NCBI GenBank assembly: GCA_000004695.1
Contig: CM000154.2
Span: 1,856,001 to 1,920,000, forward strand
DNA: 64,000 bases
Direction: 5' to 3'
Source of the DNA: Dictyostelium discoideum
Taxonomy: Eukaryota
Shown here: positions 41,595 to 42,530 of the stretch, piece by piece
Layout: every line of letters begins with the position of its first letter
Position numbering within the stretch: position 1 is the stretch's first letter
Notes under the pieces: generated by a model
Told to the model about the DNA's origin: nothing
Databases searched by the model: none
What the model saw: the letters and a program-made list of their open reading frames with translations, nothing else
Program-made: the position numbers and the translations under genes

Positions 41595-42530
41595 ATATTA
41601 AACCATAAAAAAAAAAAAAATAAATAAAAAAACAAATAATTATTCTTGTTTAAAAGTTTATTTTTTTTTATTTATTTATTTATTTATTTTTTTTTCCAAA
41701 TCAAGAGATTTATATTATTTAATTAAATAAATATCTTTTATTAGAAAAAAATGGAAATAATGATGATTTTCTTTTTTGAGATATTTAATAAACTTTAAAT
41801 ATTGGGGGGAATAACCAACCAACCAATTTTAATTTAATTTTTTTTTTTTACCTCATTTTTTTTTTTTACTTAATATTTAAACAAAACCACAAAATCTGAA
41901 AAAAAAAAAAAAAAATAATAATAATATAATATAAAATAAAAAAAATAATAAAAAAAACCTTATGAGAACCTCAACCTATTACCAACTTTACTCATTTATT
42001 ATTAAGATTTTAATAACTATTGTTGTTAAAAAAAAAAAAAAAAAAAACTTTTTCCTTTTATAATAATTGAATCCTTGATCATGAATCCACAAACACTTAT
42101 TTTAATTTTATTTTATTTTTTTATTATTTTTTTTTTTTTGTCACTATATGATTATGAGCCACCCAGGTTTTAAAATATCTTTTTTTTTTTAATTTTTTTT
42201 TTTTTTTCTTTTTAATTTTGATACAATATCAAATCACCTGACAAAATAAGAAAAAAAAAGAGGATTATTTTATTTCACATATTTTAATAAAATACTAATA
42301 ATCATTGTTTTTTTTTTATTATCATTATTTTTTTTTTTTTTTTTTTTTCCAAAAAATAAAAAAAACATTTTTTTTCTATAAGAAAAAAAAAAAAACAACA
42401 GAATTAAATAAAAAATTTAATATAGATCTATATTAAATTTTTTATTTAATTCTGTTGTTTTTTTTTAAAAATGATAGTTACAATCAATTGAAAAATATTT
42501 ATTGTTAAAAAAATAAAATACTTTATACTA
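41595..42530. repeat. Copy 1 of an about 1 kb non-coding segmental duplication.
   Basis: Long blocks nearly identical to 43290-44410 (e.g. ...ccaaatcaag[ag]gatttatattatttaattaaat..., ...cttgatcatg[ga]atccacaaac..., ...aaatcacctgacaaaataagaaaaaaa...gaggattattttatttcacatattttaat...). Confidence 0.75.
42387..42466. repeat. Perfect 80 bp palindrome centred on AGATCT (42424-42429), present only in copy 1 of the segmental duplication.
   Basis: I checked base by base that position 42426-k pairs with 42427+k for k=0..39. Confidence 0.9.

Follow-up and report, generated by a model that had tools for sequence, protein, structure and literature searches.

A perfect 80-nucleotide palindrome in Dictyostelium discoideum AX4 as the probable scar of a single template switch

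The duplicated spacer and its features

We begin by considering the locus in which the palindrome lies. The window, that is the whole stretch of D. discoideum AX4 DNA that was analysed, is 64,000 nucleotides (nt) long, and the acyl-CoA oxidase gene DDB_G0288735 (Table 1) serves as the anchor for retrieving orthologous loci. The palindrome (42387-42466) lies 856 nt downstream of the stop codon of this gene, in an extremely AT-rich non-coding spacer. This spacer is duplicated in tandem, and its two copies, A and B, are 83-95% identical in blocks. A tblastn search with the oxidase against the window does not find a decayed second oxidase copy between the duplicated units, and a database look-up returns no record for the 68-aa ORF adjoining the palindrome.

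Neither the tRNA scan nor the Rfam scan, both covering the window and the duplicated units, gives a match at the palindrome. Rfam matches are limited to a U1 spliceosomal snRNA gene at 14152-14314 on the minus strand (RF00003, 76.7 bits, full length) and a chance-level match to the histone stem-loop. Elsewhere in the window there are long short-period repeat arrays (26223-26450, 50241-50526 and 52143-52566) that are similar to one another at offsets that are multiples of 3 nt, with the array at 26.2 kb on the opposite strand to those at 50-52 kb. These are probably amino-acid homopolymer-type repeats typical of Dictyostelium.

The duplicated units (41532-42500 and 43230-44397) also contain six islands of 20-130 nt that are near-invariant in six of six copies from four genomes, with variable A/T runs between them; examples are ...CCAAATCAAGAGATTTATATT...GGGGGAACAACCAACC..., CTTTTTCCTGTTATAATAATTGAAGCCTTGATCATGAATCCACAAACCAC and GATACAATAATATCAAATCACCTGAC...GAGGATTATTTTATTTCACATATTTTAATGAAATACTAATAATCATTG. 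No ORF or Rfam match explains the islands, which could be unannotated exons, non-coding RNA or regulatory blocks.

Table 1. Features discussed in the text, with positions in the window
Feature	Position	Strand	Basis or remark
Second tandem duplication	7358-8357 and 8674-9644		two palindromes at homologous positions
AT-only perfect palindrome, 36 nt	7440-7475		upstream of ORF 7605-8009 (134 aa, part of DDB_G0288713)
AT-only perfect palindrome, 52 nt	8754-8805		upstream of paralogous 134-aa ORF 8937-9341
Acyl-CoA oxidase DDB_G0288735 (652-aa ORF)	39573-41531	+	exact match to XP_636605.1 / Q54II1_DICDI; Pfam ACOX domains
Copy A of the non-coding spacer tandem duplication, with palindrome	41553-42492		self-BLAST and anchor alignments
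Left arm, ancestral, template of the inverted copy	42387-42426		identity to orthologous and paralogous sites
Central GATC, pre-existing, self-complementary, inferred switch point	42425-42428		seen at homologous position in B copies
Derived 38 nt of right arm, exact reverse complement of 42387-42424	42429-42466		38/38 explained by reverse-complement copying
AAAAATG, return to normal template	42467-42473		aligns with end of ancestral AAAAAATA, 2 edits
Copy B of the same spacer duplication, without palindrome	43258-44389		self-BLAST and anchor alignments
Un-switched paralogous site in copy B	44304-44370		left-arm homologue 44304-44343, GATC 44342-44345, ancestral right side AATATTTTTTAAAAAATAAAAAATA 44346-44370

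The palindrome and the expectation by chance

The stretch from 42387 to 42466 is its own reverse complement at all 80 positions, as the initial annotation of this DNA had described it; each arm has 40 nt, and the centre AGATCT is at 42424-42429. Its sequence is AAAAAAAAACAACAGAATTAAATAAAAAATTTAATATAGA/TCTATATTAAATTTTTTATTTAATTCTGTTGTTTTTTTTT, and the symmetry ends at both flanks, where an A stands opposite an A. Since the window has a base composition of only 21.6% G+C, some palindromy is expected by chance. In 30 third-order Markov simulations of the window, however, the longest arms measure 9-14 nt as compared with the 40 nt seen here, and the palindrome is the longest in the window.

When folded as single-stranded DNA, the 80 nt give a stem of 38 bp closed by a loop of 4 nt; the energy is -37.3 kcal/mol, with z = -11.6 relative to dinucleotide shuffles. 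The homologous sites without the palindrome, which we call un-switched, fold at -1 to -7 kcal/mol with z between +1.0 and -1.3, i.e., no significant fold.

Comparison with other genomes and the direction of change

For the comparison, we use the orthologous loci of L001 (GCA_054883475.1, chromosome CM142511.1), of the D. discoideum genome L008 (GCA_054859385.1) and of two "D. cf. discoideum" genomes, L010 and L011. A further locus, L009 (GCA_054859355.1), is uninformative for the site because its contig ends 214 nt past the oxidase gene, and six Logan contigs with the oxidase all end at window position 41554, in low-complexity DNA. Most probably L001 is AX2-214, to judge from its identical oxidase and its near-identity to AX4. 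Both AX2 and AX4 are derived from the isolate NC4. They represent one laboratory lineage (PMC12745789).

Eight orthologous and paralogous sites, placed by conserved flanking anchors, are aligned. The palindrome is present only in copy A of AX4 and copy A of L001; it is absent from all the B copies, and no long palindrome is found near the site in L008, L010 or L011. The claim that only one copy of the duplication carries it thus holds, and the comparison with other strains that had been suggested shows its absence from the other D. discoideum isolate (L008) as well as from the two cf. discoideum genomes. The B copies of AX4, L001, L008 and L011 read ...TAGAA(T/A)TAAATAGAAATTTTA....GATC-AATATTTTTTAAAA..AAAAAATA-ATAGTTACAATC. 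At the un-switched sites in general the GATC is followed by AATATTTTTT...AAAAAATA, with L010 slightly different on the right side and reading GGTCTC at the GATC position.

The two arms fare very differently when they are compared with these sites. The left arm agrees with its orthologue in copy A of L008 at 35 of 36 positions, with one gap, and among the paralogues it matches copy B of L011 at 35/40, copy B of L008 at 32/40 and copy B of AX4 (44304-44343) at 30/40 positions. The GATC is found at the homologous position in copy B of AX4 (44342-44345, corresponding to 42425-42428) and in copy B of L001, L008 and L011. For the right arm, no homologue is found in the six comparison sites (best local scores 9-13). 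The first diagnostic base is 42429, which is T in AX4 and A in all the comparators. The stretch from the GATC to the shared ATAGTTAC measures 25 nt in the comparators (AATATTTTTTAAAAAATAAAAAATA) and 45 nt in copy A of AX4 (42429-42473); about 60 bp of the sister copy had been thought to be replaced, while the real figure is these 45 nt in place of 25 nt (44346-44370).

In copy A of L008 (L008:12790-12862), a deletion of ~33 nt has taken away the GATC together with the ancestral right side, precisely where the new arm stands in AX4. What copy A originally had on its right is therefore reconstructed from the paralogous copies and the cf. discoideum genomes. The deletion is independent of the event in AX4, and this may be a place prone to structural mutation.

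The comparison shows directly that the left arm and the GATC are ancestral, that the right arm is new, and that the allele is specific to one lineage. Because the ancestral state is kept in the adjacent paralogous copy and in other genomes, the direction of change is unambiguous.

AX4 and L001 share a further difference at this locus, a segment of ~2.2 kb (~36492-38698) that is absent from L008, L010 and L011 and in which two small genes are called (L001:7361-8002 and 8609-9057).

A model for the origin of the palindrome

We turn our attention to the mechanism. Template switching, including the class that creates inverted repeats, is established (PMC5453318), and it can make perfect stems in one event (PMC8794818). 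In the model that we propose, the ancestral site would have read ...AACAATAGAATTAAATAGAAATTTTAATATA-GATC-AATATTTTTTAAAAAATAAAAAATA-ATAGTTAC..., containing a weak quasi-palindrome (AATATAGATCAATATT) with one mismatched pair. On reaching the self-complementary GATC, the growing strand would leave its template and re-pair, via the GATC, with the strand of the same sense. Backward copying of 38 nt would then add the reverse complement of the sequence to the left of the GATC. The T at 42429 in AX4, where the comparators have A, places the start of the inverted copying directly after the GATC. Copying would extend back into the thirteen A's at 42383-42395, covering nine of them, and the return to the original template would take place within the T/A run. 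The product is a 40+40 palindrome with zero spacer, in which 45 nt stand in place of ~25 nt. In the four-point scheme of Loytynoja and Goldman, such an event would fall into the inverted-repeat-creating class, with the order 3-2-1-4 (mirror image of 1-4-3-2). A hairpin of 9 bp (TATTTTTT...AAAAAATA) could also form within the ancestral 25 nt and may have stalled synthesis at this site.

The model can be compared with other modes of copying. Following the control logic of Loytynoja and Goldman, we set reverse-complement copying of the neighbourhood against forward, reverse-only and complement-only copying. Reverse-complement copying explains 38/38 of the derived bases, as opposed to 26-28/38 for the three controls. 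A linear alignment costs 25 edits, as opposed to one switch and at most 2 edits. The return falls in the T9/A5 junction and does not reconstruct exactly: a simple return in the T run predicts T9 and then AAAAAATAAAAAATA, whereas AAAAATG is observed, a shortfall of 8 nt. To account for this mismatch, an additional loss of 8 nt and one substitution are needed, or else a slightly different copy-A ancestor.

We are thus fairly confident that the palindrome is the scar of a single short-range template switch in the NC4-derived laboratory lineage (AX4 and, most probably, AX2). Of the two readings offered at the outset, one was a foldback or template-switch event, and the ancestral left arm, the new and exactly inverted right arm and the lineage-specific allele all bear it out strongly. 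That the event was also called recent can be taken only to mean that it postdates the separation from the other D. discoideum isolate that has been sequenced; with 2.47e-11 base substitutions per site and generation in this species (PMC7466956), the perfect symmetry of 80 nt says little about age.

Two parts of this account are inference, namely that the strand switched at a replication fork and not in repair synthesis, and where precisely it returned. The same inverted copying could instead have occurred during the repair of a double-strand break (by fold-back or strand-switch, SDSA, BIR or MMBIR), which would be a variant of the mechanism and which we regard as possible though not likely. 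Quasi-palindrome mutations are reported to be strongly stimulated in yeast break repair (bioRxiv 10.1101/2023.08.09.552703), and with the independent ~33-nt deletion in copy A of L008 the site resembles a hotspot for structural mutation. The sequence, on the other hand, does not separate fork-based from repair-based copying, and the flanks are colinear with no larger rearrangement.

Further palindromes and the question of recurrence

The next question is whether such events recur. The window contains a second tandem duplication with palindromes of 36 and 52 nt (Table 1). These lie 130-165 nt upstream of the 134-aa ORFs, and the differences between them are mirrored on both arms. At locus L012 of the other D. 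discoideum isolate, retrieved by homology search (P0007), copy 1 contains the 36-nt palindrome with a single mismatch and copy 2 has only a 9+9 core. The left arm of copy 2 in AX4 has gained a stretch that exactly mirrors the ancestral right arm, which brings the palindrome from 9+9 to 26+26. Judged from these alignments, the 52-nt palindrome stems from another template switch, in which copying ran the opposite way; its ancestral state is confirmed by the paralogue.

A third and smaller case lies at 44506-44525, where AX4 has a 20-nt palindrome (TTTTAACAAT/ATTGTTAAAA). Compared with L008, AX4 contains an additional 5 nt, TAACA, mirroring TGTTA, and the palindrome is derived with respect to L008, L010 and L011.

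All mutation clusters in ~34 kb of orthologous sequence are scanned with no prior selection, covering ~27300-51700 against L008, L010 and L011, and 2511-13229 against L012; for each, the source of an inverted copy is sought in the derived strain's own neighbourhood. On the AX4 side the scan gives three reverse-complement events (80, 52 and 20 nt). No reverse-complement match of at least 16 nt is found in the ~34 kb for the second D. discoideum isolate or for either of the cf. discoideum genomes. The controls of the scan reach 17-28 nt, only in periodic T/A repeats, and the 80-nt and 52-nt matches are far above the control maximum of 28 nt. Two further matches, at 36573 and 37614, are discarded as evidence of template switching because they lie in the AX4/AX2-specific 2.2-kb segment.

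The excess in AX4, three versus none, is suggestive, and the numbers are too small for significance. A near-perfect complex palindrome at L011:15793-15836 (arm 22, at most 2 mismatches, TTTAAAACAATAATAATTAAAATTTTAATTATTATTTATTTAAA) indicates that other lineages also have some. We consider it improbable that template switches which create palindromes are unusually frequent, either in the NC4/AX lineage or in the AT-rich spacers of Dictyostelium generally. If it were true, frequent switches could give rise to new hairpin RNAs or to promoter elements that form cruciforms. An excess in the laboratory lineage that held genome-wide would also mean that replication or repair fidelity differs between lineages, and that a very AT-rich genome has a ready source of new hairpins.

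Alternative explanations

The other reading offered at the outset was a functional cruciform or protein-binding site. We examine it here in the wider form of an element under selection, whether cruciform, protein-binding site or RNA hairpin. Its attraction lies in the perfect 38-bp stem with its 4-nt loop and the -37.3 kcal/mol of the fold, in an automated gene model of L001 that starts 121 nt downstream (L001:13015, which is 42587 in the window), and in the position of the palindromes of the second duplication, 130-165 nt upstream of both paralogous ORFs. The gene model is the sole one nearby, an automated first exon in L001 that does not appear in the annotations of the other genomes; their models start 6-7 kb further on, which makes an exon at 42587 doubtful. 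A conserved symmetry is not found in L008, L010, L011 or any B copy, L008 has deleted the site, and there is no match to an Rfam family. Selection for function is thus very unlikely to explain the palindrome, and the reading as a cruciform or binding site has no support. As far as its sequence goes, the palindrome shows no sign of function. A new role, specific to this lineage, would be compatible with the non-conservation, and nothing at the site points to one.

There is also a structural concern, whether the palindrome could have arisen in assembly, cloning or sequencing, for example because a read was chimeric and inverted, or because fragments were ligated head to head at the BglII/Sau3AI site AGATCT. 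The window has two gaps of 100 N (45191-45290 and 46703-46802), both within 5 kb, which makes an assembly artefact a real possibility to test; palindromes are a known source of artefacts, and the centre of this one is a restriction site. The assemblies used for comparison correspond to a project by Holland et al. 2025 (PMC12745789), which describes de novo Nanopore and Illumina assemblies of AX2-214, CR116C, OT3A, M4B and S6B, among others. Long reads had been proposed as the check for the palindrome, and in L001, an independent de novo Nanopore and Illumina assembly, the same 80 nt are found base for base (L001:12815-12894). A comparison of this assembly with the window over 15.6 kb shows 13 substitutions and 12 indel events, and in place of the two N gaps the assembly has continuous sequence of 117 nt (L001:15608-15724) and 576 nt (L001:17125-17700). 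A ligation junction at the AGATCT centre is rejected, since the GATC is ancestral and present in other copies. An artefact therefore deserves almost no credence. The palindrome is a real allele, supported by two assemblies, and its presence in both AX4 and L001 implies that it was already in their common ancestor and has been stably inherited.

A single base in the neighbourhood deserves mention. At 42362, 25 nt to the left of the palindrome, the window has A, as opposed to G in L001 and every other copy (AAAAGAAACAT), so that either AX4 carries a real substitution or the reference is in error.

A small inserted mobile element (a MITE or foldback element), which perfect inverted arms with zero spacer might bring to mind, is rejected as scarcely credible, given that the left arm is orthologous rather than inserted sequence, that there is no target-site duplication, and that a 33-nt piece of the arm occurs nowhere else in the window (at most 3 mismatches) and among the other loci only in L001.

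Comparison with known systems

The template switch that we propose is a known type of mutation, and the palindrome is a well-resolved new example of it with no sign of function. The closest parallel is the work on four-point template switches (Loytynoja & Goldman 2017, PMC5453318; Walker et al. 2021, PMC7954356), in which, as here, a cluster of changes is accounted for by one reverse-complement replacement. The likeness extends to the inverted-repeat-creating class, to reverse-complement copying outperforming the reverse-only control, and to the presence of the allele in an independent assembly. The differences are that our case comes from an amoebozoan with 78% A+T, that the product is a perfect 80-nt palindrome with zero spacer, that an inverted copy of 38 nt is fairly long, and that the switch would have used a pre-existing self-complementary GATC. 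In the retrieved papers on mutation in Dictyostelium, we do not find mention of template switching. In variant calling and alignment of Dictyostelium genomes, such events would wrongly pass for many closely spaced substitutions and indels.

A second parallel is the quasi-palindrome correction of Ripley, as it is cited in PMC5453318. The ancestral AATATAGATCAATATT with its one mismatched pair has been made perfect, in keeping with such a correction, and the change from A to T at 42429 is the corrected base. The event goes far past such a correction: about 32 further bp of the stem have no earlier counterpart, so that the event mainly creates a palindrome rather than repairing one.

The template switching described for hairpins and miRNA precursors (Monttinen & Loytynoja 2022, PMC8794818; bioRxiv 10.1101/2023.04.19.537475) is alike in that a long perfect stem is made in one step. 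The mirrored differences of the palindromes at 7440 and 8754 also resemble the "compensatory" changes that the same two studies attribute to template switching. In contrast to the miRNA precursors, the locus of the 80-nt palindrome has no RNA-family match and no sign of transcription or processing.

At 80 nt, the palindrome is shorter than those usually reported as strongly unstable. With the long fragile palindromes that are cut by structure-specific nucleases (bioRxiv 10.64898/2026.04.29.721645), the present one has in common that it is perfect and AT-rich and could extrude a cruciform or hairpin. It differs from them in being identical in two NC4-descended laboratory lines, and thus stably inherited. 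As a palindrome of the D. discoideum reference that is genuine and inherited, it need not be counted as an assembly error; set beside the systems above, it offers a very clean natural case in which a single template switch would have given rise to a perfect palindrome of 80 nt.
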